A DNA stretch of 63,997 nt, filler included, from Candidatus Woesearchaeota archaeon (GTDB lineage: Archaea > Nanobdellota > Nanobdellia > Woesearchaeales > CG1-02-33-12), in assembly GCA_018399355.1 (NCBI GenBank). It is 3 parts of 3 records of this genome, joined end to end, with 100 filler letters (N's around TTAATTAATTAA, not from the genome) between each part and the next. Parts side by side here need not be neighbours in the genome. Positions count along the whole stretch, not along the records: positions 1 to 26,196 come from JAGYOA010000010.1; 2 more parts are not named here. One strand, written 5' to 3'. Positions 457 through 15,351 of this stretch are shown in pieces (positions within the stretch are counted from its first letter, which is position 1; each line of letters opens with the position of its first letter). A program made the translations under genes and the position numbers. Under the pieces are notes generated by a model, which was not told where the DNA came from, did not search any database, and saw only the letters and a list, made by a program, of their open reading frames with translations.

Positions 457-1386
457 TTATTCTACACAATTGCATTGATAAGCACTAAGGTGGTTATCAT
501 CAAGCATAAACCATAATGGCATATTTTCTATTTGACAATCATTAGTTGATTCTGTTCCAAAGTAAATGTAATCAACAACGCTCCGACTCTTTGTCTGGAA
601 ACCCTGAGACTTGAATTCCTCAATATTCACAAGGCTTTCTATGCCATATGGCGATGATGATAGATTTCCGGCAAGCCTCATAAGAAAGCTCGGAGCAGTT
701 TCTGATTCTATGTAATATGAATTGTTGAGGTGGATTTGCAGGTTTGTTGTGTCTTCACCATCGACAAAATTAGTTATTGTTGTTTTTATTATCTTGTTTG
801 TTACTTTTCCATTACTGTTTATGCTGTATAATGCATCCTCAAACTCTTCTATGCTTATATTTGCTGTTATCTTAACATCTCTATCCCATGAGGCAGTATT
901 CTTTTTATCTTTTACATTTATTTTTATATCTACATAAACCTTTACCTCCCATGGGTTGTCATGGTAAATAATAACATCATTTATATCAAAATCAAGATTT
1001 ATATCAAGCTTTTCTGCCTCAAATTTTACCTTATCTGTCCAGTTTACAAAAGTTGATTCATTCATCAAGGCCATCTTAGAGTTGTTTATTGTCCCGTTGA
1101 GAAATGCCTCCCTAAATCTTGGCTGGAAGTCTCCTATGAATTTTCCATTTGTTGTTATGTATTGTTCCATACTCATAATGGCCCTAAATCCTGTTATGTA
1201 AACTCCTCTCTCAATGTCATTTTCAATATCCCTGATGAAATTGTCCATTGATTTAACTCTTGTTCCTATCACAACTGATTTATCCCTCAAACTGTACTTG
1301 TTGTACAATGTAAATGAGAATACAAGTATACTTATTAGAATAACAGAAATTATTGTGAAGACCATCGCCTTTTTTTTTATTGCCAT
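457..1386 (-). CDS. Class III signal peptide (pilin-like) protein, 309 aa
   Basis: Start re-called at ATG 1386: MAIKKKA|MVFTIISVILISILVF, basic N-region plus hydrophobic helix; overlaps the upstream stop. Confidence 0.7.
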   Translation of the reverse strand: MAIKKKAMVFTIISVILISILVFSFTLYNKYSLRDKSVVIGTRVKSMDNFIRDIENDIERGVYITGFRAIMSMEQYITTNGKFIGDFQPRFREAFLNGTINNSKMALMNESTFVNWTDKVKFEAEKLDINLDFDINDVIIYHDNPWEVKVYVDIKINVKDKKNTASWDRDVKITANISIEEFEDALYSINSNGKVTNKIIKTTITNFVDGEDTTNLQIHLNNSYYIESETAPSFLMRLAGNLSSSPYGIESLVNIEEFKSQGFQTKSRSVVDYIYFGTESTNDCQIENMPLWFMLDDNHLSAYQCNCVE

Positions 1387-4049
1387 GACCTCACCTCGAC
1401 TATCAATGGCCCCCACAAATAAGGCACCTGCGAAACCCACAATGCTTCTATCTCCAGATCTTCCTCATCTATATCTATGTTGATTTTTCCATTATTGTCA
1501 AAATCAAGGTTCAAAAGCAATTCATAAACTGCTTTGCTTATGCTATCCTGAGTGTTCCAGCTTATCTCTGAGTTTGTATAATTGCACTCATTTTCTCCAG
1601 AGTAATCGCTTGGTACAGATGCTGTTATAAATCCTGAGTCCTCTGTTTCGATTATCCATGTGCATCCTTCTGCATTTGGAAGCACATCGCTATAAGTTAC
1701 AGATGATTTTATTGCAGCATTGTAGATCATGCTGTTGTTTTTAGAGCATCCTGTTTCATTTTCAGGCGTGTCAGCTGTCTGGAGCTTTATTGTGTTGCTT
1801 CCATTAACTAAGTAGGTTGGAGGAATCCTCAAGACAAAGGGATCTCCTATACTGCGATAGTCCGAGCCGTAATCAGTTATGTTAAAGAGAAGGTTATCAT
1901 TAACATCAAGCATACTTGTCCAATGTGAACCAGAGTATGATAATACTCTTGCATCTATTATCCTAAGCTTGTTTGGTATGTCAACATTGTTTGTGCAACT
2001 ATTGAACTTCTCTGTTTCTATGGCAAGATCAATCTCACCAAATGAGGCAGGCTCAACAAGGGGAGTGAAATCAAATTTTATGTATGAATCAGGGTAGAGT
2101 ATTGAATTCTGGTATTGGCCCATAAGGGTTATTATCTGTGATGAATAGTTTGCCATTACAAGTATCTGCTCTCCTATATCTTCATATATTGAAGTAAGAT
2201 TTTCAACATCAGATGCATTGTAATACAATGACTCATTACATGCAATTTGTCTCATTGTGTCATGGTCTGCATTCTCTCCAAAGGCAACTGCAAAAACAAC
2301 TATTCCATTGTTGCATGCGTTCTGTCCTGCATCAATTGCCCATTGCTTATCCTGTTCACTTGAACTACCTCCTGAACTATCACCTCTTGTGCCTGAGCCG
2401 TCATAATCTGAGAATCCATTGCAATAATATGTGGGCTGCCCATCACTCATGACAACTATGAATTTTTTATTTTCACTTGTTATAACCATATCCTTTGCCC
2501 TGTTTACCCCGCAGCATATGCATGTTCCCCCATTAGCTGTATATCCATTTATCTTGCTTTCAAGCATTCCTTTATTATCTGTTATTGGTTGAAAATCATT
2601 TGCGCTTGTGCTGTAACTTACTAATCCGATTTCATTCCCACTCATATTCAATACAGTTTCTACAAACTGTAAATCTGCGTTTTTTGCAAGGTCAAGCCTT
2701 GTCTGGCAATCTGTTATCTCGTGATTTCTGGTTATTCCTGAACTGCATGTTCCACATTGATCTCCTGCACATGAGTCTGTATATTCACATTCCCTTGTTT
2801 CCCAATCCCAGCACCAGATAAACCATGAAACACAGCATTCATACCTGCATTTTGCACCAGGCAAAGGCACCTCGCATGTGCTCATACTTCCTGAAACATC
2901 AGTAACAAGAACAGAATCAGATGGCTCTCCTGATGTAATGTTCAATATCTCAGAAATATTTGTTGTCCCCAACCTTATTGGTATTGTTTTTTGGGGGAAG
3001 GGAAGTGCCTCTTCTTCTATACTAATGAACTGGTCTTCATCTGAGCCGCTCCATGAATAAGCTGTTTCGTTTCCTATGTTGAGAAAAGTTGTTTTGTTGT
3101 TGTAGAAATGGAGGTAAATATCAATATAGTTTAGATTTCCAGGGATATCAAAAGAAGAATAAAGATTTATTAGCCCATTTATTCCTGGGAAATAATAGTA
3201 GCTTATCCCAGATGTTGTGTCACTTATTAGTTGGCTTGTTTTGTAAGTTACCTTTGCATAACCTCCTGCGATATATGCTTTGTCAAGCTCTTCCTTGAAT
3301 ATTATTGAAAGGTTGTTTTCTATACCTGCCTGAAAATTGCATGATGTTATGTTCCATCTTGTTGAGCTCATGTTTTCCTCTGGAGGATTAAACAAATCAC
3401 AGAAAACCCCATTCACATACAAATCAAAATCACTTCCTGCATCAAGCTCGATAAATGCATCCTCTATTACTGCATCATCAGGAATGGTTTCTATCTCTCT
3501 TGAAATGTTTCCCTGGCCCACAAAACCACCAAAATATGCGAAGGAAGATGTTGTTTTTTCTTTTATGCTTTTGAGATACGCCCTTGCAGTTGAGCCTTTT
3601 ACAGGCCTTTCATTCTCATACCCTGAAATCATCCTTCTTGCAGATATAACTGTTTGATTTGTGGGCAAGTCTCTTGAATAAACATCATTTCCTCCAACTA
3701 TTATACTGAAACCAATATTTCTGGGAATTATTTCTGCTGTTAAATTTTCTGCAAGATTTTTACAGAGCTGTGTTTTGTTTAAAATACAAAATTCTCCTAT
3801 CTGCTCAAGTACACTTTTTTCCTGGTTTGTTATCTCACCAGAGGCTATAAGCTCCTTAACGTAAGTGTTATTTATCTCACCTATTTTTAATACAGAAAGC
3901 ACGTTAATAATATCATGCGCACAGTAATCTAAATTTGTATATTCCCTATCAGCAACATAAAATGAATCCAGTAAAATTATCCCTACTATTAACAGTGTAG
4001 CACCCATTATTGCATCTATTGTAAAAAATACCCCATTTTTTATTGCCAT
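1377..4049 (-). CDS. Large pilin-like protein with VWA domain, candidate tip adhesin
   Basis: KNG|VFFTIDA class III-like N-terminus; MIDAS elements LVTDVSGSM, GGT, VMSDG; VFAVAFG strand. Confidence 0.8.
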   Translation of the reverse strand: MAIKNGVFFTIDAIMGATLLIVGIILLDSFYVADREYTNLDYCAHDIINVLSVLKIGEINNTYVKELIASGEITNQEKSVLEQIGEFCILNKTQLCKNLAENLTAEIIPRNIGFSIIVGGNDVYSRDLPTNQTVISARRMISGYENERPVKGSTARAYLKSIKEKTTSSFAYFGGFVGQGNISREIETIPDDAVIEDAFIELDAGSDFDLYVNGVFCDLFNPPEENMSSTRWNITSCNFQAGIENNLSIIFKEELDKAYIAGGYAKVTYKTSQLISDTTSGISYYYFPGINGLINLYSSFDIPGNLNYIDIYLHFYNNKTTFLNIGNETAYSWSGSDEDQFISIEEEALPFPQKTIPIRLGTTNISEILNITSGEPSDSVLVTDVSGSMSTCEVPLPGAKCRYECCVSWFIWCWDWETRECEYTDSCAGDQCGTCSSGITRNHEITDCQTRLDLAKNADLQFVETVLNMSGNEIGLVSYSTSANDFQPITDNKGMLESKINGYTANGGTCICCGVNRAKDMVITSENKKFIVVMSDGQPTYYCNGFSDYDGSGTRGDSSGGSSSEQDKQWAIDAGQNACNNGIVVFAVAFGENADHDTMRQIACNESLYYNASDVENLTSIYEDIGEQILVMANYSSQIITLMGQYQNSILYPDSYIKFDFTPLVEPASFGEIDLAIETEKFNSCTNNVDIPNKLRIIDARVLSYSGSHWTSMLDVNDNLLFNITDYGSDYRSIGDPFVLRIPPTYLVNGSNTIKLQTADTPENETGCSKNNSMIYNAAIKSSVTYSDVLPNAEGCTWIIETEDSGFITASVPSDYSGENECNYTNSEISWNTQDSISKAVYELLLNLDFDNNGKINIDIDEEDLEIEALWVSQVPYLWGPLIVEVRSWQ

Positions 4050-4546
4050 GCATATACCACCATTCTTGCTATGCTGTTATTTTTTGCAACAATTCTTGTG
4101 ACCTTTGCAAGCTTTTTTGGGTTTTCATCTTGATTTATGTTTGTTGAATTTACGCCCGGTTTTCCTATTCCCTCTGTTGTATTGTTTATTCTTATTTTGC
4201 TTCCATCACTATTTTCAAAAAAAATATAATAATCATATATTGTTCCAAATATTTTTTTTGTGTTGCTGTAATCCATAGATAAAAAAACATCCAGTTTTTT
4301 TTGGTTTATTTTATCATCTGTGGCTATTCCTATGTGTGTTACATTTTCCGATGTCCAGTTTTTTGGATATCCCTCTGTTAACAGAGAATCAGAGATTAAT
4401 TTTGCACTTTCCAATATATCACCAAGCAGCACTTCATCCTGGTTTGATAGATTGGTTGTTGTTTTGTAATAAACAGCAATTGCAACGCCAAATATGACTA
4501 TTGCTATTATCATATCCATACAAAATATTTGCGCCTTAGTTGAGAT
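4040..4546 (-). CDS. Minor pilin-like protein, probable non-AUG start at ATC 4546
   Basis: In-frame extension upstream of ATG 4519 gives ISTKA|QIFCMDMII; GGAGG lies 8 nt upstream of the ATC. Confidence 0.65.
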   Translation of the reverse strand: MSTKAQIFCMDMIIAIVIFGVAIAVYYKTTTNLSNQDEVLLGDILESAKLISDSLLTEGYPKNWTSENVTHIGIATDDKINQKKLDVFLSMDYSNTKKIFGTIYDYYIFFENSDGSKIRINNTTEGIGKPGVNSTNINQDENPKKLAKVTRIVAKNNSIARMVVYAWQ

Positions 4547-4925
4547 TTATAATCCCTCCCTTGTTTGTTATTGTATTATTTCCTTTTTTTATGGTGCCAT
4601 TAATCTTTGGTATTCTTAAGCTGAATTCCATCTCATTCATAATTACTGTGAACTGGTTTTCATATGTTGCTATTTCGTATTCCTTTCCATCAAACTCGTA
4701 TGGAAGGTAAAATGTCCTATTGTAGCCTTCCTTAACCTGAGAGGCAAGGATTATTTCATTCTGTATCTTATAAGCAACATCCTTAATAATGATATAATCC
4801 CTTTGCCTGTTAAGCTTTTCTGTATGATCGCTAGTTGAAGAAACAAAGATTATCAACATCATAAGGCATATTCCAATAAGAACTATAAACTCCATAGCGA
4901 CCTGGGCTCTTAACCATCTACCCAT
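4536..4925 (-). CDS. Minor pilin, class III signal peptide
   Basis: RA|QVAMEF with E at +5 and hydrophobic helix. Confidence 0.8.
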   Translation of the reverse strand: MGRWLRAQVAMEFIVLIGICLMMLIIFVSSTSDHTEKLNRQRDYIIIKDVAYKIQNEIILASQVKEGYNRTFYLPYEFDGKEYEIATYENQFTVIMNEMEFSLRIPKINGTIKKGNNTITNKGGIINLN

Positions 4926-5320
4926 ACGTAACCCTCCCTTGCCTCTATTGTTATGTAATGTATTCCGGGGCTTGTTGAAACATCTCCACTTATATTAACA
5001 GAGCTTGTTTGGCTGATGTCAGATATACCGCTTTTTGTTTTTATTTTGAAACAAACCTCATAATCTTCCATAACTATGCTTTCAACGTTTTCAGGCATGT
5101 AAACCTTTATCCTTGTTTTTGAGGGCTCGCCTAGATAATAAACAGCTTCAGAGTTGTCAACTATTTTTTTTACAATCTTGTCTGCCTGGCTTGTTATTAT
5201 CTGGTAGTTTGTTGTGGCGGTATGCTGGTAGAATATTATTATCAAGGGGGTTGTTATAATAAGAACAAAACCTACTATTATCAAGTATTCCATGCTAACT
5301 TGCGCAAACTTTCCCCTCAT
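4910..5320 (-). CDS. Minor pilin, class III signal peptide
   Basis: KFA|QVSMEY with E at +5 and hydrophobic helix. Confidence 0.8.
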   Translation of the reverse strand: MRGKFAQVSMEYLIIVGFVLIITTPLIIIFYQHTATTNYQIITSQADKIVKKIVDNSEAVYYLGEPSKTRIKVYMPENVESIVMEDYEVCFKIKTKSGISDISQTSSVNISGDVSTSPGIHYITIEAREGYVWVDG

Positions 5321-5486
5321 AAAATAACTTTTCTTAAACGCATATTTAAATTTATGTAACTATTTTAAAATAAGTAATGGAAATAACAAAAAACAGCTTT
5401 AAAATAGTTAGGTTTATATATTAGTAGTTGTTAATATATCAAAAAGTATAGTAATATACTAAAAATCCAATATCAGAGGTGATATT
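5321..5486. promoter_or_regulatory. Divergent promoter region between the minor-pilin operon and the major pilin
   Basis: TTTAAA box near 5345 for the minus strand; TTTATATA near 5413; SD GAGGTGA before ATG 5487. Confidence 0.5.
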
Positions 5487-5933
5487 ATGAAAAAAGGACA
5501 AGCTGCAATGGAGTTCTTAATGACATACGGCTGGGCAATACTTGTTGTTTTGCTGGCCATAGCAGCACTGGCATATTTTGGAGTGCTTAATCCAGGAAGA
5601 TATCTGCCTGCAAGCTGCAACCTTCCATCAGGTTTAGCCTGTGTTGATCATAAAGTTGTAGGCGGAGCAGATAGTGAAGTAGTACTTGTTATCAGGAATG
5701 GAATGGGAGAAAACTTAGATCCTTTTAATGTTTCAGTAGAGGGATGCACAAGTGCAGATGGACCAGTGGAAGCTATTGAGGGTTTGAGTGATGGAGAAGA
5801 AGAAATAATTACAATAAGTTGTACTGAGGATTTATCAGGAACAAAATTCAGTGGAGACATCACAGTTCAGTACACCAAAGAGAGCGGAATTGATCATACA
5901 GTAACAGGAAGTATTACCTCTCAAATCCAGTAA
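5487..5933 (+). CDS. Probable major type IV pilin
   Basis: MKKG|QAAMEFLMTYGWAILVVL canonical archaeal prepilin N-terminus; strong SD; T-rich terminator follows. Confidence 0.85.
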   Translation: MKKGQAAMEFLMTYGWAILVVLLAIAALAYFGVLNPGRYLPASCNLPSGLACVDHKVVGGADSEVVLVIRNGMGENLDPFNVSVEGCTSADGPVEAIEGLSDGEEEIITISCTEDLSGTKFSGDITVQYTKESGIDHTVTGSITSQIQ

Positions 5934-7758: not shown

Positions 7759-7884
7759 ATGATTTTACTTAAAAAAAGAGGCTTTAATATGACTCCTGAG
7801 GTGATTGTTATAATAATGCTTGCAGTTGTTTTGGCAGCCTTGTTTTTTTTGATAATAGGGAGGGCATCAAATGTTTTGCCTTAA
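7759..7884 (+). CDS. 41-aa mini-pilin, absent from the ORF track
   Basis: MILLKKRG|FNMTPEVIVIIMLAVVLAALFFLIIGRASNVLP; correct spacing from TATA box; overlaps the next gene. Confidence 0.75.
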   Translation: MILLKKRGFNMTPEVIVIIMLAVVLAALFFLIIGRASNVLP

Positions 7885-8605
7885 AAACAATAAAAAAGGG
7901 ATTACAAGAAATGTACTATTTGCATTAATCACAACATTGGTAGCTTTTTTTATAATTATTTTTGTTATTATGTCTATATGGGGTAAGGCGGATGATAATC
8001 TTAATGAGGCAACATGCAGAGCAAGCGTTCTTTCAAGAGTAAAATCAACTTTAAATATTGGACCTATAAAAGTAGCTTTTCCTTTGAGATGCAAGACACA
8101 GGAAAAAAATGCTTTAGTAGGAAATAAGGATGCAATAATGGAGCAGATATCTTATATGAGCGCAAAGTGCTGGTGGATGTTCCTTAATGGAGAATACCAA
8201 AATCTCTTTGACAGGGCAGATTTTTTAAACAATAACAAATGCTTTACATGCTATACTTTTACAGTTGAGCCGGATATCAAGATAACTTCAGAAGAGCTTA
8301 TGGAGTATATGGCAAGCCATTATTATATTGAAACAGAAGAGGCCAAGGTTACATATCTTGACTACATCCAAAGCTATAAGGGAGATGGGGCTGTTTTAAT
8401 TGGTGAAAACACAATTATAACAGGAAAAAAAGAAACACCTTACTCAATAAATTTTTTAAGTCCAGATACAACTTTTATTGGAGAATTATGGGATAGTATT
8501 GTATCATTCTTCTCTGGAGATAACTCAGATAAAGAAATGAACAGGATATACATAGATGAGCTTCAGGGACTATCAACAGACTGCATATATCTTGAGAGTA
8601 TTTAA
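7871..8605 (+). CDS. Pilin-like protein, class III signal peptide
   Basis: NKKG|ITRN then hydrophobic helix; paired Cys (CRAS, CKT, CWWMF, CFTC). Confidence 0.7.
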   Translation: MFCLKNNKKGITRNVLFALITTLVAFFIIIFVIMSIWGKADDNLNEATCRASVLSRVKSTLNIGPIKVAFPLRCKTQEKNALVGNKDAIMEQISYMSAKCWWMFLNGEYQNLFDRADFLNNNKCFTCYTFTVEPDIKITSEELMEYMASHYYIETEEAKVTYLDYIQSYKGDGAVLIGENTIITGKKETPYSINFLSPDTTFIGELWDSIVSFFSGDNSDKEMNRIYIDELQGLSTDCIYLESI

Positions 8606-8606
8606 A

Positions 8607-8759
8607 ATGAAAAAAAATAAAAAAGCAATTATGTGGAATGAAATAATACTTTGGATAATTTTCATTGTTATATTAATTGTTTTTATAATAATACAAACAG
8701 GGTTGAAAGACAAGATGATAAGCGATATAAACAATTTTTTCAACTTTTTGAGGTTTTAA
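8607..8759 (+). CDS. 50-aa mini-pilin
   Basis: Start re-called at 8607: MKKNKKA|IMWNEIILWIIFIVILIV with E at +5. Confidence 0.75.
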   Translation: MKKNKKAIMWNEIILWIIFIVILIVFIIIQTGLKDKMISDINNFFNFLRF

Positions 8760-8760
8760 A

Positions 8761-9366
8761 ATGTTAGGGCTTGATTTTATTGTTAAGGCTGCATTGGGAT
8801 TAGTTGCGCTTTTTGTTGTGCTTGGCTTGATTTATGCCTTAGTGCCTGATGCAATGAAAGAGTACATTGATAACACAGCGCTTGGAAAAATTATTCCTAA
8901 CTTTTCAATAGGATTGGATAAATACGAATCGGATTTTCAAATACCAAAAGAAATAAAAGAGAACATAGAGCAGATTGACAGTCTCATATCAAAAGAAAAA
9001 GATTGGGAATTACAAGAAGGCGAAATCAAAACAATTGAGCTTAATGATTTCACAAAAGATGATATGAGTTATAAAATCATAATAAAAAAAGATTATTACA
9101 TTGTTGAAAATATGAATGGCCAAAGGGCATACTATGAAAACGATTTAACTGCAATACCCTGTGCTATACATACAAGTGATCCGAATTATATGAGCGGACT
9201 TTTAGACGAAAATAAGTATGAAAAAAAGTTTGTTGATAGTATTACACTTAAAGATAAAAATACGATTCAACAAAAAGATGACGAATATGCCTTTTTGGGA
9301 TTGACTAAAGAAAGCAACAGCATTTGTTTTGTTTACTTTTCTCATACAGGAATGAATGCTCCTTAA
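8761..9366 (+). CDS. N-terminally anchored protein in the pilin operon
   Basis: Single N-terminal TM helix without a basic class III region; 1-nt spacing in the operon. Confidence 0.6.
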   Translation: MLGLDFIVKAALGLVALFVVLGLIYALVPDAMKEYIDNTALGKIIPNFSIGLDKYESDFQIPKEIKENIEQIDSLISKEKDWELQEGEIKTIELNDFTKDDMSYKIIIKKDYYIVENMNGQRAYYENDLTAIPCAIHTSDPNYMSGLLDENKYEKKFVDSITLKDKNTIQQKDDEYAFLGLTKESNSICFVYFSHTGMNAP

Positions 9367-9377
9367 CAGAATAAAAA

Positions 9378-9671
9378 ATGAAAAACAAAAAAGCAGTTGA
9401 ACTGAGCTTGAATGTGATTGTTATTGCCGCATTAGTGCTTATTGTTCTCATAGTTTCCATAGCCATTTTCACCGGCCTTGTAGGAGACACTGTTTCTGAT
9501 ACCAAAATTACAATGGGAAGCATTACCGGCGACTATGATGGAGATGGGATAAAAGATTTTCTTGACAAATGCCCATGCTATGCTGGAACAGCAGAATACA
9601 ATGGATGCCCTGAAGAGATTAATGAAGAAAACAGGGAGAAATACACTTCAAGGCATTGTTTAGAAGACTAA
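9378..9671 (+). CDS. Small pilin with a thrombospondin type 3-like Ca-binding motif
   Basis: KKA|VELSLN; DYDGDGIKDFLDKCP...NGCP. Confidence 0.75.
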   Translation: MKNKKAVELSLNVIVIAALVLIVLIVSIAIFTGLVGDTVSDTKITMGSITGDYDGDGIKDFLDKCPCYAGTAEYNGCPEEINEENREKYTSRHCLED

Positions 9672-9672
9672 A

Positions 9673-10899
9673 ATGAAAAACAAAAATAAATCAGAAATAT
9701 CCTTGGAATTCTTGATTGGAGTAGTGATATCTGTATTGCTGATTGTGCTAGCTATTAATATTGTAGCAAAGATGGCAGGTGTTGGCGAAGACAGCAAACA
9801 ATCATTTTACAACCTTGTTGAGATTATAAATGAAGTTAAGGATAATCCTTCTGGAACAATAAAATCAACCAGCCTGAGAATGGACAAGGAAACAGTCATT
9901 CTTGGTTTCCCAAAAAATAATGAGCCAATAAAATTTACTGTTTCTGAAGCAAGCGGTTTTGCTCCGGGATTTACAACATTATCATTTGAAAAACCAATCT
10001 CAGAAGAAAAATGCGAAAAAGACAAGGCATGTATCTGCTTGTGCGGTGAGATAGAATTAAAAGAAAAAGGCAGAGTTGTATGCAATAAAAATCATCTTAT
10101 ATGCAAAAATGTTGAGGATGTTGATTTTCCTGAATTGTCTGATAAAGAAGGAATTTCAATATATTTATCAAAAACTAATGGGTTCTTTATATCAAGATCA
10201 AATATTTTTAAAAGCTGGGAAAACTCGCAATTAAGACCTGTTTATGTTGAGAAATATGAGTCAGGAGGAAATAAACTTGTTTCTGTTTGCGAAAATCCAC
10301 AGGATGGCTCATGTCTTGACCCTAATTATAAAAAAGAAATAGATACACTTACCGGACTGACTAAATTGAAAGAATTTATTGAATCCTGTAAGGAATCCGA
10401 GATAAGAGAGGGAGATTACTGCGGATGTGGTTTATTTGCTTTTGATTATGAAATTCCTGAAGGATATGGCGTAAAGTTTTCTGAAGAAGATGAAGTTCTT
10501 TCATTAATATTAAGAAAAGATAAAAAAGACACTGAAACAAAATTAGAAATTCCTGATATAGATTTTTATGATTATTTATTGTATTCGGAAGAGAGCCAAC
10601 CCATACATCATGATAATAAGGTAGAAATTGATAATATATTATTAGAAATTGAAAGTGATTACGCCTTCTGCAAAAAAGGCACAGATAATTTTTGTGATGA
10701 AAGTGAAAGCAAAAATCAAATAACTTTTATCAAAAGCCAAAATAATCAAGTTGGAATTGTAAGCCATCCTGAAAATGAACAAGGAAGAGTTGGCTTAATC
10801 ACAGATGGATTAATTGAAAAAAAGCCAAATTCAATAGAAGTTTGTTATCTTATGTATGGTAAGTGTGGATATAGTTTAATTATTCCAGGATGCTCATAA
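9673..10899 (+). CDS. Cys-rich pilin-like protein
   Basis: NKS|EISLEF plus hydrophobic helix; CICLC and CGCG motifs. Confidence 0.7.
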   Translation: MKNKNKSEISLEFLIGVVISVLLIVLAINIVAKMAGVGEDSKQSFYNLVEIINEVKDNPSGTIKSTSLRMDKETVILGFPKNNEPIKFTVSEASGFAPGFTTLSFEKPISEEKCEKDKACICLCGEIELKEKGRVVCNKNHLICKNVEDVDFPELSDKEGISIYLSKTNGFFISRSNIFKSWENSQLRPVYVEKYESGGNKLVSVCENPQDGSCLDPNYKKEIDTLTGLTKLKEFIESCKESEIREGDYCGCGLFAFDYEIPEGYGVKFSEEDEVLSLILRKDKKDTETKLEIPDIDFYDYLLYSEESQPIHHDNKVEIDNILLEIESDYAFCKKGTDNFCDESESKNQITFIKSQNNQVGIVSHPENEQGRVGLITDGLIEKKPNSIEVCYLMYGKCGYSLIIPGCS

Positions 10900-10949: not shown

Positions 10950-11987
10950 ATGAAAAAAAGAGGTATGGCCGATTCTATGCTGGTAGCTATAGAAATAGTT
11001 GGAGCTGCCCTGGTTTCCTTCCTTTTGATAACAACTGCACTAAGATGGGCAGATTCTGAAACACCCTATAAGGAATACCTTTCAAAGGATATTGGACTCG
11101 TAATAGAATCTCTTATGGCAAGCCCGGGAAATATAAAAATAAACTACTCTAATAATGCCTCTGATTATATTATAGATATACAACAAGACTCTGTTGCTGT
11201 TTATACTGATAACAAAGATGATGGAATGCAGTCAACCTTTATTCCTTCACATAAAATAAAGATGGAAAGCGTTGAATTAAGAAATCCTGAAACTATCCAG
11301 TTTTTAAAAACAAACGATGAAATTATAATAAATGAAGAAATCCAGGAAAACCTGGATTTAGTTTATTGCTGCGAAAAAACAGGCTATAAAAAACAAAAAA
11401 TAAATCTTCTTGTTGATTTAAAAGATGAAGAAAATGAGTTAATATACCCTAAGTTGTGTGTTATTGCAAATTCTTTTATGGTAAACATTGGAAATAAAAA
11501 CTTTATTGGTAACTTAATCTCAACAAGAAAGCTAATGGAAAAAACAGATGATGAAATCTCCCAGATTAACTGCATGGATGAATCATATTCTATTCCTGAA
11601 AAAAAGGCAGATGTAATATTAAGCATAACTACAGGCAATTACAATGACGACTCAAACAATATAAAAGCATTTGTTTTATCTGGCTCTGAAAAGGAAGAGG
11701 AGAGCAAAAGATTAGCATGCCTTATAATAAATTCAATATCAAAGAGCATGATAACTGAAGATTTAGAGATTACGGGCGCTTCTGTGGTTCCTGTTAATCT
11801 GACTACAACTAATTATGATTTTCCCCTTGATTTAATCTCAAGCTACACTGAGAACCAACAAAATTTTGAAAGTGTTTTTGTAATGATTGAACTTGGGAAC
11901 ATAAACAGCGATCAGGGAAAAGATCTTATTGAAAAAATGACTCAAATAGGAGAATTAATTGCAGAGGGTTTTTCTGACTATGAATAA
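10950..11987 (+). CDS. Pilin-like protein with degenerate N-acetylmuramoyl-L-alanine amidase (Amidase_3)-like C-terminal fold
   Basis: KKRG|MADS plus TM; ordered motifs INLLVD, ADVILSI, ESKRLACLI, VMIELGNINS, IGELIAEG; Zn-ligand His residues absent. Confidence 0.6.
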   Translation: MKKRGMADSMLVAIEIVGAALVSFLLITTALRWADSETPYKEYLSKDIGLVIESLMASPGNIKINYSNNASDYIIDIQQDSVAVYTDNKDDGMQSTFIPSHKIKMESVELRNPETIQFLKTNDEIIINEEIQENLDLVYCCEKTGYKKQKINLLVDLKDEENELIYPKLCVIANSFMVNIGNKNFIGNLISTRKLMEKTDDEISQINCMDESYSIPEKKADVILSITTGNYNDDSNNIKAFVLSGSEKEEESKRLACLIINSISKSMITEDLEITGASVVPVNLTTTNYDFPLDLISSYTENQQNFESVFVMIELGNINSDQGKDLIEKMTQIGELIAEGFSDYE

Positions 11988-12465
11988 TAAAATATTTTTC
12001 TCAAAAAAAGGAAGTGGATATGAAATAGGAAAAAAGCCAACATATTATGTGGTAATATTTTTCTTTTTAACAATAAGCTTTATGCTCTTTGGATTCTTAA
12101 TAATAAGTGAGGTTTCATCATCAAGCAGCATACCTGATAATGCCAGAACAACAGTATTAATCAATAGGTTCCTTAATTCAGAAGACTGCTTTGCATACAA
12201 AGACAGCGAAACAGGAAGGGTTTACCCTGGAATAATAGACATTGAAAAATTTAATGAAAATAATCTTGAAAAATGCTATTATGCAGAGAAAAAATATGAT
12301 TCAAAATCCTTTAGGCTTACCCTTAATGGAGAAGATATAGAGAAAAAAACAATCCTGACAACAAACTGGGGGTCATCAAGATTTGGTCAGGCATCACAAT
12401 ATGTTTTATTATACAATAATGGAGAAATATCAAAAGCAAACCTTTTGATTGCTGTACAAAAATGA
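11980..12465 (+). CDS. Pilin-like protein
   Basis: Start re-called at ATG 11980; SKKG|SGYE then hydrophobic helix. Confidence 0.65.
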   Translation: MNNKIFFSKKGSGYEIGKKPTYYVVIFFFLTISFMLFGFLIISEVSSSSSIPDNARTTVLINRFLNSEDCFAYKDSETGRVYPGIIDIEKFNENNLEKCYYAEKKYDSKSFRLTLNGEDIEKKTILTTNWGSSRFGQASQYVLLYNNGEISKANLLIAVQK

Positions 12466-13067
12466 AATTATCAAACTATTTAAGGAAACTTGAAAAAAAC
12501 AAAAAAGCACTTGATCCTGACTTTACAGATGCAATAATAGCAATAATTTTTACTGCTCTAATTTTTATTTTTGCATTCATCTTTATATCTGGCAATAAAA
12601 GCGGGCTTCAGAGAGTTGCAGAGATCGAGAGCGAGAATCTTGAGAAAAATTATATCCTGATTAATTATCTCAGGACTCCAATTGAGGACAGCAGTCTTAA
12701 TATAGGAGAGTTTCTTGGTAAAAAAACAAAAACAGAGCTTTTAAGAGCAAAACATGGGATGGCAGGAATAGGTGCGTTTTGCGGATACGAAACTCTTGAT
12801 AATACTATTTCACAAAAAAGTGAAGACGGAATCTTGATTAAAGAGACAGAAAACATACTTGAAAATGTAAAAGACTGGAGATTGAATATGTATATTGATG
12901 GTAATGAATTTTGCTTTATAAGACAAGGAAAAGGAGCCATCTCTTCCAAACAAGACATAACTGGAGAGACAGTCATGATACTAATACCTTCAATCAGCAA
13001 AGATCTTGAAATAAAAATTTACTTTAAGCTAAATATATTTGGATTTTCATCACTAAGTTCACTATGA
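12462..13067 (+). CDS. Pilin-like protein
   Basis: NKKA|LDPD then hydrophobic helix; ATGA overlaps on both sides. Confidence 0.65.
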   Translation: MKLSNYLRKLEKNKKALDPDFTDAIIAIIFTALIFIFAFIFISGNKSGLQRVAEIESENLEKNYILINYLRTPIEDSSLNIGEFLGKKTKTELLRAKHGMAGIGAFCGYETLDNTISQKSEDGILIKETENILENVKDWRLNMYIDGNEFCFIRQGKGAISSKQDITGETVMILIPSISKDLEIKIYFKLNIFGFSSLSSL

Positions 13068-14182
13068 TCAAAATGGTAAAAAACAAGAAAGCAAAAATAT
13101 TCCTCACTTTTGTTTCAATATTTATACTTGTAGCTTTGCTTTTTTTTTATGGCAATTATGGGACAGGAACAGTGTTTAAAACAGGGAAGGGAGAATTGCA
13201 GCTGGAAACATTAAAAATATACCAGCAGGCCGAGAAAGCAATGCTTTACATTGACTTGGCTGCAAAATATTCTGCAGAAAAAACCATAAATGATTTAGAT
13301 AAAGAACTTCCAAAAGACACAACAAAAAAAGAGATTTATGCTTTATTTTCTGATAAATTTAATAATTACATGGATGAATACATAGAAAAATATAAAGATG
13401 AAGAACTTGAGAAAGATGGCGAGATAATAATACCAAAGAACAATTATGACTTATTGTTCAAAGAAAGCCGCTTGATTGGAATAGCAACACAAAACATAAA
13501 GATAAACAAGGAAAACATAAACTATTCTGTAAAACCATCTTTTAAAATAGAATTTAAATATGATCTATTTGAAAATTATGAACAACTTACTGAAAGAGCA
13601 GATACTGATGAAGAAATTAATTCTCAGGAACATCAAACAACAAAAGTAGAAGATTGGAATAGCTTGCCAGATGATCAGCTTGAATCTAAAATAAGAGCAG
13701 CTGCATCACAATATAACATTCCTCAACACATCGCATTAGGTATCGCAATGCAAGAAAGCAGTATGAATCATTATTATCCTGATGGCAGTGTAAAAATGTC
13801 AAATGCTAACTGTATAGGCCTTATGCAAGTTCAGCTTGATAGTCGCGACGGAACTTATAATAGTGTGTGTAGTATGAGTAAAGAGGAGTTAAAAGATATA
13901 AACAAAAATATTGATTGTGGAATGAAAATACTCAAAGGTAAGTACAATATGGTTTGTGATTCGAATAACAATCCTTTAATAAGGCGATATATAGACATGT
14001 CAGAATATGAATTAAAGATAAGGGAATGGTGCAAAATTGATGAACATTTAAAGAATTATCTTGAGTATGATGGAGATTGCGATAAGATGGCAATAAGGGC
14101 TTATAATGGATTAGGGTGTGCTGAAAATGCAGATGTTATTTATGTAGAAAGAGTATTAACCCATGCTGCAAAATACAAATAA
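13064..14182 (+). CDS. Pilin-like membrane-anchored protein with C-terminal lytic transglycosylase (SLT) domain
   Basis: NKKA|KIF plus TM; SLT motifs IAMQESS (catalytic Glu), GLMQV, NIDCGMKIL, AIRAYNG, YVERVL. Confidence 0.88.
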   Translation: MIKMVKNKKAKIFLTFVSIFILVALLFFYGNYGTGTVFKTGKGELQLETLKIYQQAEKAMLYIDLAAKYSAEKTINDLDKELPKDTTKKEIYALFSDKFNNYMDEYIEKYKDEELEKDGEIIIPKNNYDLLFKESRLIGIATQNIKINKENINYSVKPSFKIEFKYDLFENYEQLTERADTDEEINSQEHQTTKVEDWNSLPDDQLESKIRAAASQYNIPQHIALGIAMQESSMNHYYPDGSVKMSNANCIGLMQVQLDSRDGTYNSVCSMSKEELKDINKNIDCGMKILKGKYNMVCDSNNNPLIRRYIDMSEYELKIREWCKIDEHLKNYLEYDGDCDKMAIRAYNGLGCAENADVIYVERVLTHAAKYK

Positions 14183-14322: not shown

Positions 14323-15351
14323 ATGAACATGATAAAGATGCCCTATGATGAAATTCTTGAAAAGATAAAGCAGAAATCAGACCTCAGCGAGCAGGAAATA
14401 AAAGACAAAATTGATGCAAAGCTTAAGCAGCTTTCCGGATTAATAAGCAAAGAAGGAGCTGCCCATATACTTGCAAACGAACTTGGCATAAAGCTTTTTG
14501 ATTCCTTAGGAGGAAAGCTCCAGATAAAAAATATATTGTCAGGAATGAGAAGCGTTGAGGTTGTTGGAAGAGTTACAAGGGTTTTTGAATTAAGGGAATT
14601 TAACTCTAACGGAAGACAGGGCAAGGTTGCTTCTATGATAATAGGGGATGAGACAGGAACAATAAGAGTTGCCATGTGGGGAGAGCAGGCAGACAAAATA
14701 AATGAAATAAAAGAAGGAGATATTGTCAAGATAATAAGCGGATATGTGAGGGAGAACAGAAACAAAGAAAAAGAAATACACATGAACAACATGGGCAGAA
14801 TAGTTGTGAATCCAGAAGGTGTGACAGTAAAAGAGGTTAAGCGAACAACAACCAGCAACAGAAAAAAAATAAAAGACCTAACAGAAGATGATTCAAATGC
14901 TGAAATCCTAGGAACAATAGTTCAGGTTTTTGACCCAAGATTTTTTGAGGTATGCCCTCAATGCGGAAAAAGAGCTAGGAATGATGGAGAAGGATTTTTA
15001 TGCGAAACTCATGGTAATGTAAAGCCTTCATATTCATTTGTTCTTAATATATTCCTTGACGACGGAACAGACAATATAAGAGCAGTATTCTTCAGAGACC
15101 AGGCTCTAAAGTTATTAAACAAAACCCAGGAGCAGATGGTTGAGTACAAGGATAACCCAGAAAAATTTGAGGATATAAAAACAGAGCTTTTAGGCAATAT
15201 AATAAAGATTATCGGAAGAACAACAAAAAATGAGATGTTTAACAGGCTTGAGATTGTCAGCCAGATGGTTTTTATCAATCCTAATCCAGAAGAAGAAATA
15301 AAAAAGCTGAACAAAGAGATGGAAAGCGTTAAAGAAGAAAACGTAGAATAA
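14323..15351 (+). CDS. rpa: Replication protein A (OB folds plus Zn finger)
   Basis: GDETGTIRVAMW and LDDGTDNIRAVFF OB motifs; CPQC...CETH Zn finger. Confidence 0.85.
   Translation: MNMIKMPYDEILEKIKQKSDLSEQEIKDKIDAKLKQLSGLISKEGAAHILANELGIKLFDSLGGKLQIKNILSGMRSVEVVGRVTRVFELREFNSNGRQGKVASMIIGDETGTIRVAMWGEQADKINEIKEGDIVKIISGYVRENRNKEKEIHMNNMGRIVVNPEGVTVKEVKRTTTSNRKKIKDLTEDDSNAEILGTIVQVFDPRFFEVCPQCGKRARNDGEGFLCETHGNVKPSYSFVLNIFLDDGTDNIRAVFFRDQALKLLNKTQEQMVEYKDNPEKFEDIKTELLGNIIKIIGRTTKNEMFNRLEIVSQMVFINPNPEEEIKKLNKEMESVKEENVE

Follow-up and report, generated by a model that had tools for sequence, protein, structure and literature searches.

A pilin-like protein of Woesearchaeales carrying an Amidase_3-fold domain that lacks its zinc ligands

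The gene at 10950..11987 (plus strand) of the window, by which the whole analysed stretch of 63,997 nucleotides is meant, encodes a modular pilin-like protein of 345 aa in which a pilin module is followed by a degenerate Amidase_3-fold domain. The protein has a pilin-type N-terminus and an Amidase_3 fold in which all three zinc ligands have been lost, this dead domain is under purifying selection, and its gene lies in a conserved cluster with hydrolases. This is a real feature of kinds that are already known (the modular pilin and the pseudo-amidase), and it would work like a modular adhesin pilin. The interpretation preferred here is that the protein is a minor pilin bearing a wall-binding module that does not catalyse, and that this module may hold or recognise the bacterial wall while a neighbouring pilin cuts, a reading given slightly less than an even chance. 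The source contig occupies positions 1-26196 of the window, the remainder of which derives from other contigs, and belongs to a genome of 918 kb that is 97.5% complete.

Domain architecture and fold

The protein begins with a short basic leader ending in Gly (residues 1-5; 10950..10964, plus strand), recognised in the sequence and with K3 nearly invariant, which runs into a hydrophobic helix. The pilin-like module (residues 6-139; 10965..11366, plus strand) stands alone in many relatives and is joined here by a linker with Cys140 (11367..11387, plus strand) to the Amidase_3-fold domain (residues 147-345; 11388..11984, plus strand). The original prediction, placed at 11391..11987, covered the C-terminal domain (residues 148-345) but left out the N-terminal rest of the ORF. 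The five family-pattern motifs on which it drew all lie in the one ORF (10950..11987, plus strand) and are colinear as it had claimed, namely INLLVDL (residues 151-157; 11400-11420), ADVILSIT (residues 220-227; 11607-11630), ESKRLACLI (residues 251-259; 11700-11726), VMIELGNINS (residues 311-320; 11880-11909), and a fifth at residues 333-344 (11946-11981).

[quoted passage not shown] A helix is predicted over residues 4-57, with a break at 35-36 and beta strands after it (the full-length model has a helix at 4-34), and residues 1-139 folded alone reach a pLDDT of 93. The conserved Glu stands at +10 and not at +5, where the type IV pilin rule places it, and Pfam finds no pilin or Class_IIIsignal match on the protein at E<=1. 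Structural comparison of residues 1-139 returns nothing at Z>=5, with 8 of the 11 top rows being type IV pilins or pseudopilins at weak Z (3.4-4.2), and Foldseek returns no match to the same residues at E<=0.001. The weak neighbours are of bacterial type (PilA4, GspI, EpsI), and no archaeal pilin is named in 50 rows. Other contigs of the genome carry matches to the T2SSE ATPase (3), the Peptidase_A24 prepilin peptidase (2), and the T2SSF platform (4); within the cluster, neither an ATPase nor a platform gene was found. The "pilin" part of the original prediction is thus backed by the N-terminal motif, the gene cluster, and the type IV pilus machinery of the genome, but its structural match is weak (best pilin Z 4.2). 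The N-terminal part is likely a pilin, and a prepilin peptidase would be expected to cut it after Gly5.

The fold of the C-terminal domain, called by eye in the original prediction, is borne out by a family profile, Foldseek, and structural comparison. Pfam itself gives the domain alone a weak Amidase_3 match (E 0.00095, 19.7 bits), and its scores of 18.5-19.7 bits fall under the 27-bit cut-off. A homologue search of 1.84 billion representatives returned 240 proteins at E<=0.001, 150 of them among the matches listed, and a 138-member family profile searched against the PDB matched 14 sequences at E<=1, all of them cell-wall amidases (best 1.5e-17). In the AlphaFold2 model of the protein (pLDDT 94), residues 147-345 match the C. 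difficile amidase 4RN7 best (Z 17.1, rmsd 2.5, 161 residues). The comparison with AmiC and CwlV that had been suggested as a check gives Z 16.0 and 15.6; the model has a Zn-amidase fold. The first 14 structural rows are cell-wall amidases (Z 13.0-17.1), the next row dropping to 8.8, and Foldseek on the model agrees (E 7.2e-6). The Amidase_3 assignment exceeds chance.

The domain shares its fold with the Amidase_3 (PF01520) enzymes 4RN7, Cwp6 (5J72), AmiB (8C0J), AmiC (4BIN), and CwlV (1JWQ) at Z 15.6-17.1, superposing at an rmsd of 2.5-3.2 A across 157-170 residues, and the catalytic Glu is common to both. Unlike these enzymes, the present protein has no zinc ligands, carries Gly two positions after the second zinc His (His2+2), is fused to a pilin-type module, contains extra Cys pairs, and is encoded by an archaeon; to our knowledge, archaea make no peptidoglycan. 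It shares the Amidase_3 fold yet is probably not a functional member of the enzyme family. The three nearest Atlas clusters consist of all-archaeal hypothetical proteins, mostly from Woesearchaeota or Nanobdellota, and a protein identical to the same-genus orthologue is labelled "Candidatus Nanoarchaeia archaeon". Two intact homologues bear the label [quoted passage not shown], so the naming of intact members as amidases at NCBI is already known, but without the link to a pilin. On the strength of these labels and clusters the order is taken to be Woesearchaeales.

The zinc site and its loss among homologues

In Amidase_3 enzymes, as described in the available text of PMC7694207 and PMC5430687, zinc is held by His-Glu-His and a further Glu is catalytic. 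The corresponding residues here are D159 at the first zinc His (11424..11426, plus strand), I165 at the zinc Glu (11442..11444, plus strand; placed by helix register, the MAFFT alignment having a gap), T227 at the second zinc His (11628..11630, plus strand), and the retained catalytic E314 (11889..11891, plus strand). The replacement of both His residues and the survival of the catalytic Glu had been recognised in the original prediction, but the loss of the third ligand, the Glu, had been missed. In the alignment, E314 shares its column with the Glu of intact members, and through the family profile it corresponds to that of Cwp6.

The site alignment comprised 153 of 166 sequences, those of at least 240 aa (13 short ones were left out; 151 are distinct). 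Among these homologues, 58 still have the first His, 94 have the Glu ligand, 57 have the second His, and 119 have the catalytic Glu; one or more of the four are missing from 112 of the 153, where the substitutions are diverse. Relatives with the His residues, which had been proposed as something to look for, do exist, as all four residues (H-E-H-E) are kept in 41/153; 33 of the 38 scanned library proteins that are intact at the four positions exceed the Pfam cut-off. On a FastTree phylogeny built without the motif columns, the intact or non-intact state changes 25 times over the whole tree (shuffled mean 36), an exact number that is soft given the many long branches, and at least 11 changes of state are forced by well-supported (starred) branches. 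Because regain of four residues is unlikely, these changes point to repeated losses of the metal site. The protein falls in a clade of 13 rows (support 99), none of them intact, and an extra Cys pair (170 and 208) is present in 13/13 of these rows. C140 and C257 occur in 142 and 140 of the 153 homologues, respectively, and would probably form a Cys140-Cys257 disulfide.

Of the 89 dead rows, 64 keep the catalytic Glu, as do 51 of the 76 outside the 13-row clade, a figure biased upward by a query that itself has Glu. Among those 76 homologues, E314, G316, and N317 rank within the 11 best-kept of 199 positions, and the best-kept positions are mostly core (e.g., N261, C257, I337, L255). The dead members have diverged strongly, to about 20-30% identity, and have no common new motif. 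A pairing of Arg or Lys at the second His position with the retained Glu was considered and rejected, since its p of 0.014 in the 89 dead rows became 0.17 in the 76 rows outside the clade. A precedent is CwlM (Ami2, Rv3915), an Amidase_3 protein with both His residues changed to Arg and a regulatory role (PMC5430687, available text), and 33/89 dead homologues likewise have Arg or Lys at the second His. CwlM regulates wall synthesis in its own cell via MurA, and its residue at the position of the catalytic Glu is Asp, whereas the present protein keeps the Glu, looks exported, and is fused to a pilin.

A further difference concerns the position two residues after the second His, which in M. abscessus Ami1 (Asp117) touches the peptide via water (PMC7694207, available text). 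The residue is G229 here and Gly in 34 of the 41 intact homologues, and it is Asn or Asp in 8/8 aligned Amidase_3 proteins that are not pilin fusions; because of this Gly, the groove differs from that of the bacterial enzymes even in intact members. The non-pilin proteins with the bacterial-type His-x-Asn/Asp in the phylum include L095, L096, L098, L099, and L101-L104, two of which sit in frames of about 2500 aa, and proteins of this sort are possible donors of the fused domain. An Amidase_3 match was found in 38 of the 401 genomes of the phylum, a tally that takes in three genomes marked unpublished (G521, G118, G426), and the gene described here is the sole Amidase_3 match in its genome.

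Gene cluster, distribution and mosaicism

The gene lies in a run of pilin-like genes on the plus strand. Upstream are three (7871..9366) of 244 aa, 50 aa (8607-8759), and 201 aa, the 50-aa ORF being under the customary length cut-off and within the cluster. These are followed by a small gene of 97 aa (9378..9671) whose family occurs in 20/21 loci, and by a large Cys-rich gene of 408 aa (9673..10899) that varies among relatives. The 97-aa protein ends in a TSP_3-like repeat that is rich in Asp and contains Cys (Pfam E 0.00015, under cut-off), a possible calcium site. Immediately downstream come a conserved partner of 161 aa (11980..12465; family in 20/21 loci), a gene of 201 aa (12462..13067), and a pilin-like gene whose product ends in an SLT lytic transglycosylase domain (13064..14182; Pfam SLT E 1.2e-9, above cut-off), the SLT motifs of which, including the catalytic-type Glu, look intact. 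An RPA-like OB-fold gene (14323..15351, plus strand) forms a conserved flank in 19/21 loci. Compared across this window and 20 loci picked for long contigs, the order is conserved as small pilin-like genes, a variable one, the present gene, its ~160-aa partner, a third gene, a large cargo gene, and the RPA gene.

A scan of 41 neighbours, chosen by size in 19 of the 20 loci, detected wall-hydrolase families above the Pfam cut-off near relatives of this gene in 10/19 loci (SLT in 5, M23 in 4, M15/VanY in 2, and glucosaminidase in 1, some loci carrying two); of the remaining scanned loci, 1 had a weak M23 match and 8 had none. The third downstream gene (13064-14182; L051-L070) is an interchangeable cargo pilin, which bears SLT here and SLT, M23, M15/VanY, fn3 or TSP3 domains, or none recognised, in relatives; in the sister genus, genome G002 encodes a version of 196 aa that has no SLT. 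Complementarity between the state of the amidase site and the neighbouring hydrolases was considered and rejected, as hydrolases accompany 4/6 intact and 6/13 non-intact loci, showing no link. Three SLT genes are present in this genome, the further two (G000:C56:20358-20621 and G000:C23:34645-35025) in frames of 700 and 570 aa, and neither M23 nor Amidase_2 was found in this 97.5%-complete genome. A second pilin-like cluster lies on the minus strand (457-5933) and includes an 890-aa vWA-domain protein (1377-4049) and class III-signal genes; the small pilin at 5487-5933 is oriented divergently from this vWA cluster.

In the order, 264 of 301 genomes have a match to the family profile. Among the best 150 of the 304 order matches, which favour full-length forms, 105 reach into the amidase-like domain and 41 end inside the pilin module. 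This tally takes in seven genomes marked unpublished (G205, G201, G118, G203, G288, G181, G286); nothing else reported here depends on these or on the three unpublished genomes of the phylum tally. Other orders of the class yielded matches in 33 genomes, with 32/33 pilin-module rows in frames of <=182 aa, so that related pili can do without the amidase domain. The outgroup state would thus be a pilin on its own, onto which the amidase was grafted later. In two genomes, G019 (L114, 1306-2549) and G021 (C11:29558-30445), the arrangement is split, with the pilin module and an intact amidase domain in two overlapping frames in the former and two separate matches likewise in the latter; this is a split gene, a frameshift, or an assembly error.

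Purifying selection acts on the dead domain. Its dN/dS in 11 family pairs, which are non-independent, spans 0.19-0.52, against 0.22-0.49 in the pilin module; the pairs that include the gene of this window are near saturation. Across six sister-genus genomes the domain is 80-89% identical in nucleotides and the pilin modules fall into three groups that are 56-67% alike; with one domain allele on three pilin backgrounds, the domain acts like a module that can be separated from the rest. A stretch of 200 bases is the same in two genomes that are 84% identical in the housekeeping gene. Between G011 and G012 the housekeeping gene (presumably that for RNA polymerase subunit D) is 94% identical, the domain 85%, and the pilin module 56%. 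This genome and a congener have housekeeping genes that are 89-91% identical (radA 91%) and only 35% identity in this protein. The locus appears to be a mosaic with breakpoints near the domain borders, although chimeric assemblies are possible. A cross-species sweep of the dead domain was considered and dropped, because the housekeeping gene is equally 80-94% identical among those genomes; the pilin flanks are therefore the unusually divergent part, and mosaicism alone is claimed. The suggestion in the original prediction that the domain had been repurposed receives indirect support from the purifying selection, the domain shuffling, and the pilin-only outgroups; the peptidoglycan-binding adhesin that it proposed is a candidate role.

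Proposed role, alternatives and significance

Under the preferred reading, the protein would be a minor type IV pilin of modular build, belonging to a pilus or pseudopilus that Woesearchaeales direct at bacteria, and after prepilin peptidase cleavage the subunit would enter the minor-pilin tip complex. An amidase domain may have been grafted early in the order onto an ancestral stand-alone pilin and its metal site lost many times since, so that in this lineage the domain would no longer cut and the old substrate groove would recognise or hold the target wall, the glycan presumably being opened by the SLT-bearing pilin three genes downstream. In favour of this reading are the fold, the site losses beside intact relatives, the good retention of E314, G316, and N317 in dead homologues, the conservation of a dead domain that behaves as a separable module though pilin-only relatives exist, the wall hydrolases as neighbours, the type IV pilus genes in the genome, and the established occurrence of modular pilins. 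Against it count the Gly at the peptide-contact position, the divergence of dead members that share no new motif, the weak pilin fold match, and a site state unlinked to hydrolases; in addition, the retention of Glu may be structural, and purifying selection would be expected of any folded surface domain. Amidases have become wall receptors through loss of a zinc ligand in the non-catalytic peptidoglycan recognition proteins of animals, an analogy only, as those proteins have the Amidase_2 fold, which is unrelated to Amidase_3.

Alternatively, the domain may be a structural pseudoenzyme that binds no wall and serves the minor-pilin complex as a folded spacer or as a platform for docking (e.g., one holding the hydrolase pilin). 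The core location of most of the best-kept residues in dead homologues (N261, C257, I337, L255), the fixed gene order with the downstream pilins, the restabilisation suggested by the 170/208 Cys pair, and the example of CwlM, which as an Amidase_3 protein has its catalytic residues replaced and works via MurA (PMC5430687, available text), all speak for this possibility. The frequency of pilin-only forms (41 of the best 150 rows in the order and 32/33 outside it) and the recombination of the domain independently of its own pilin module and of the next gene, which a fixed interface would resist, speak against it, and we consider it unlikely, though to be taken seriously. It is somewhat less probable that the domain is a vestige or a variable shield, in which SLT took over cutting and the amidase decayed, is merely kept folded, or diversifies as a virus-exposed surface. 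The many and different substitutions in the 112 of 153 homologues that have lost at least one residue, and the 35% identity of this protein in two congeneric genomes with radA 91% identical, would fit such decay, but no stop interrupts the matched region in 10/10 matched genomes of the family (this one included), dN/dS is well below 1, and the full domain is kept throughout the 13-row clade. A different chemistry, in which E314 and the acidic stretch 156-161 make up a new site (enzyme or metal) or the substrate is not peptidoglycan, is very improbable, since D159 (Q, Y or P) and T227 (K or R) vary even among the nearest relatives; the points on its side are an E314 invariant in 9 family rows and the weak activity reported for CwlM despite its His-to-Arg changes (PMC5430687, available text).

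Independent of the ligand question is whether the N-terminus belongs to a filament subunit or serves a surface complex as a membrane anchor of class III type. The absence of a Pfam pilin or Class_IIIsignal match, the Glu at +10 instead of +5, and a cluster in which ATPase and platform genes were not found would suit an anchor, which is nonetheless doubtful in view of the typical small pilin-like genes in the cluster and of the type IV pilins and pseudopilins that make up 8/11 top structural rows of residues 1-139, at low Z.

Modular type IV pilins with grafted adhesion modules are established (PMC8179133), and, in the available text of that paper, S. sanguinis PilB and PilC and GspK carry a functional module on a small pilin via a short linker, as here; PilB is a weak structural match of the pilin module (Z 3.7). 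The modules named there are vWA, lectin, carbohydrate-binding, and S74 and M26 peptidase domains, whereas the present one has an amidase fold, and the words "amidase" and "peptidoglycan" are absent from the main text. Murein transglycosylases have been reported in Woesearchaeota (PMC8204110, PMC9723730, available text), and those of Woesearchaeota and Pacearchaeota (GH23, fam00969) share with this protein the lineage and a proposed bacterial-wall target (PMC8204110, PMC9723730, PMC12352652, available text). The modular wall hydrolases described in Nanoarchaeota had to have a wall-binding domain for inclusion (PMC12352652, available text), and this fusion is without one by Pfam. Amidase_3 was not found in the supplement of PMC8204110, "pilin" and "pili" are absent from the main texts of PMC8204110, PMC9723730, and PMC12352652, and "amidase" is absent from the main texts of PMC4858521 and bioRxiv 10.64898/2026.05.13.725050, although the bioRxiv supplements could bear on the point. 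In a search covering mostly literature outside subscription, no published description of a pilin-Amidase_3 fusion was found.

That Woesearchaeota may live on bacteria is argued in PMC8204110 and PMC9723730 (available text) from genes for transglycosylases and a predicted pore-forming toxin as well as from co-occurrence. The near-core gene of the order described here ties a wall-amidase fold to pilin-type subunits beside other wall hydrolases, and the amidase-pilin cluster suggests how such hydrolases reach the host. A broader and rather unlikely extension is an order-wide type IV pilus tip that attacks bacteria, in which the Amidase_3 cutter of one fixed subunit was repeatedly turned into a wall receptor whose alleles are swapped between species as host-range modules beside an interchangeable hydrolase subunit (SLT, M23, M15); if this were true, the dead domain would act as a receptor for peptidoglycan in an archaeon and could serve as bait to find which hosts an uncultured order lives on. 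The value of the finding lies in an order-wide system with directly testable natural pairs of intact and dead domains, which can be expressed and assayed on sacculi with no need to culture the archaeon. Should the dead form prove to bind walls, the conversion of enzyme to receptor would have been repeated at least about ten times, and the domain would offer a probe for the identity of the host.
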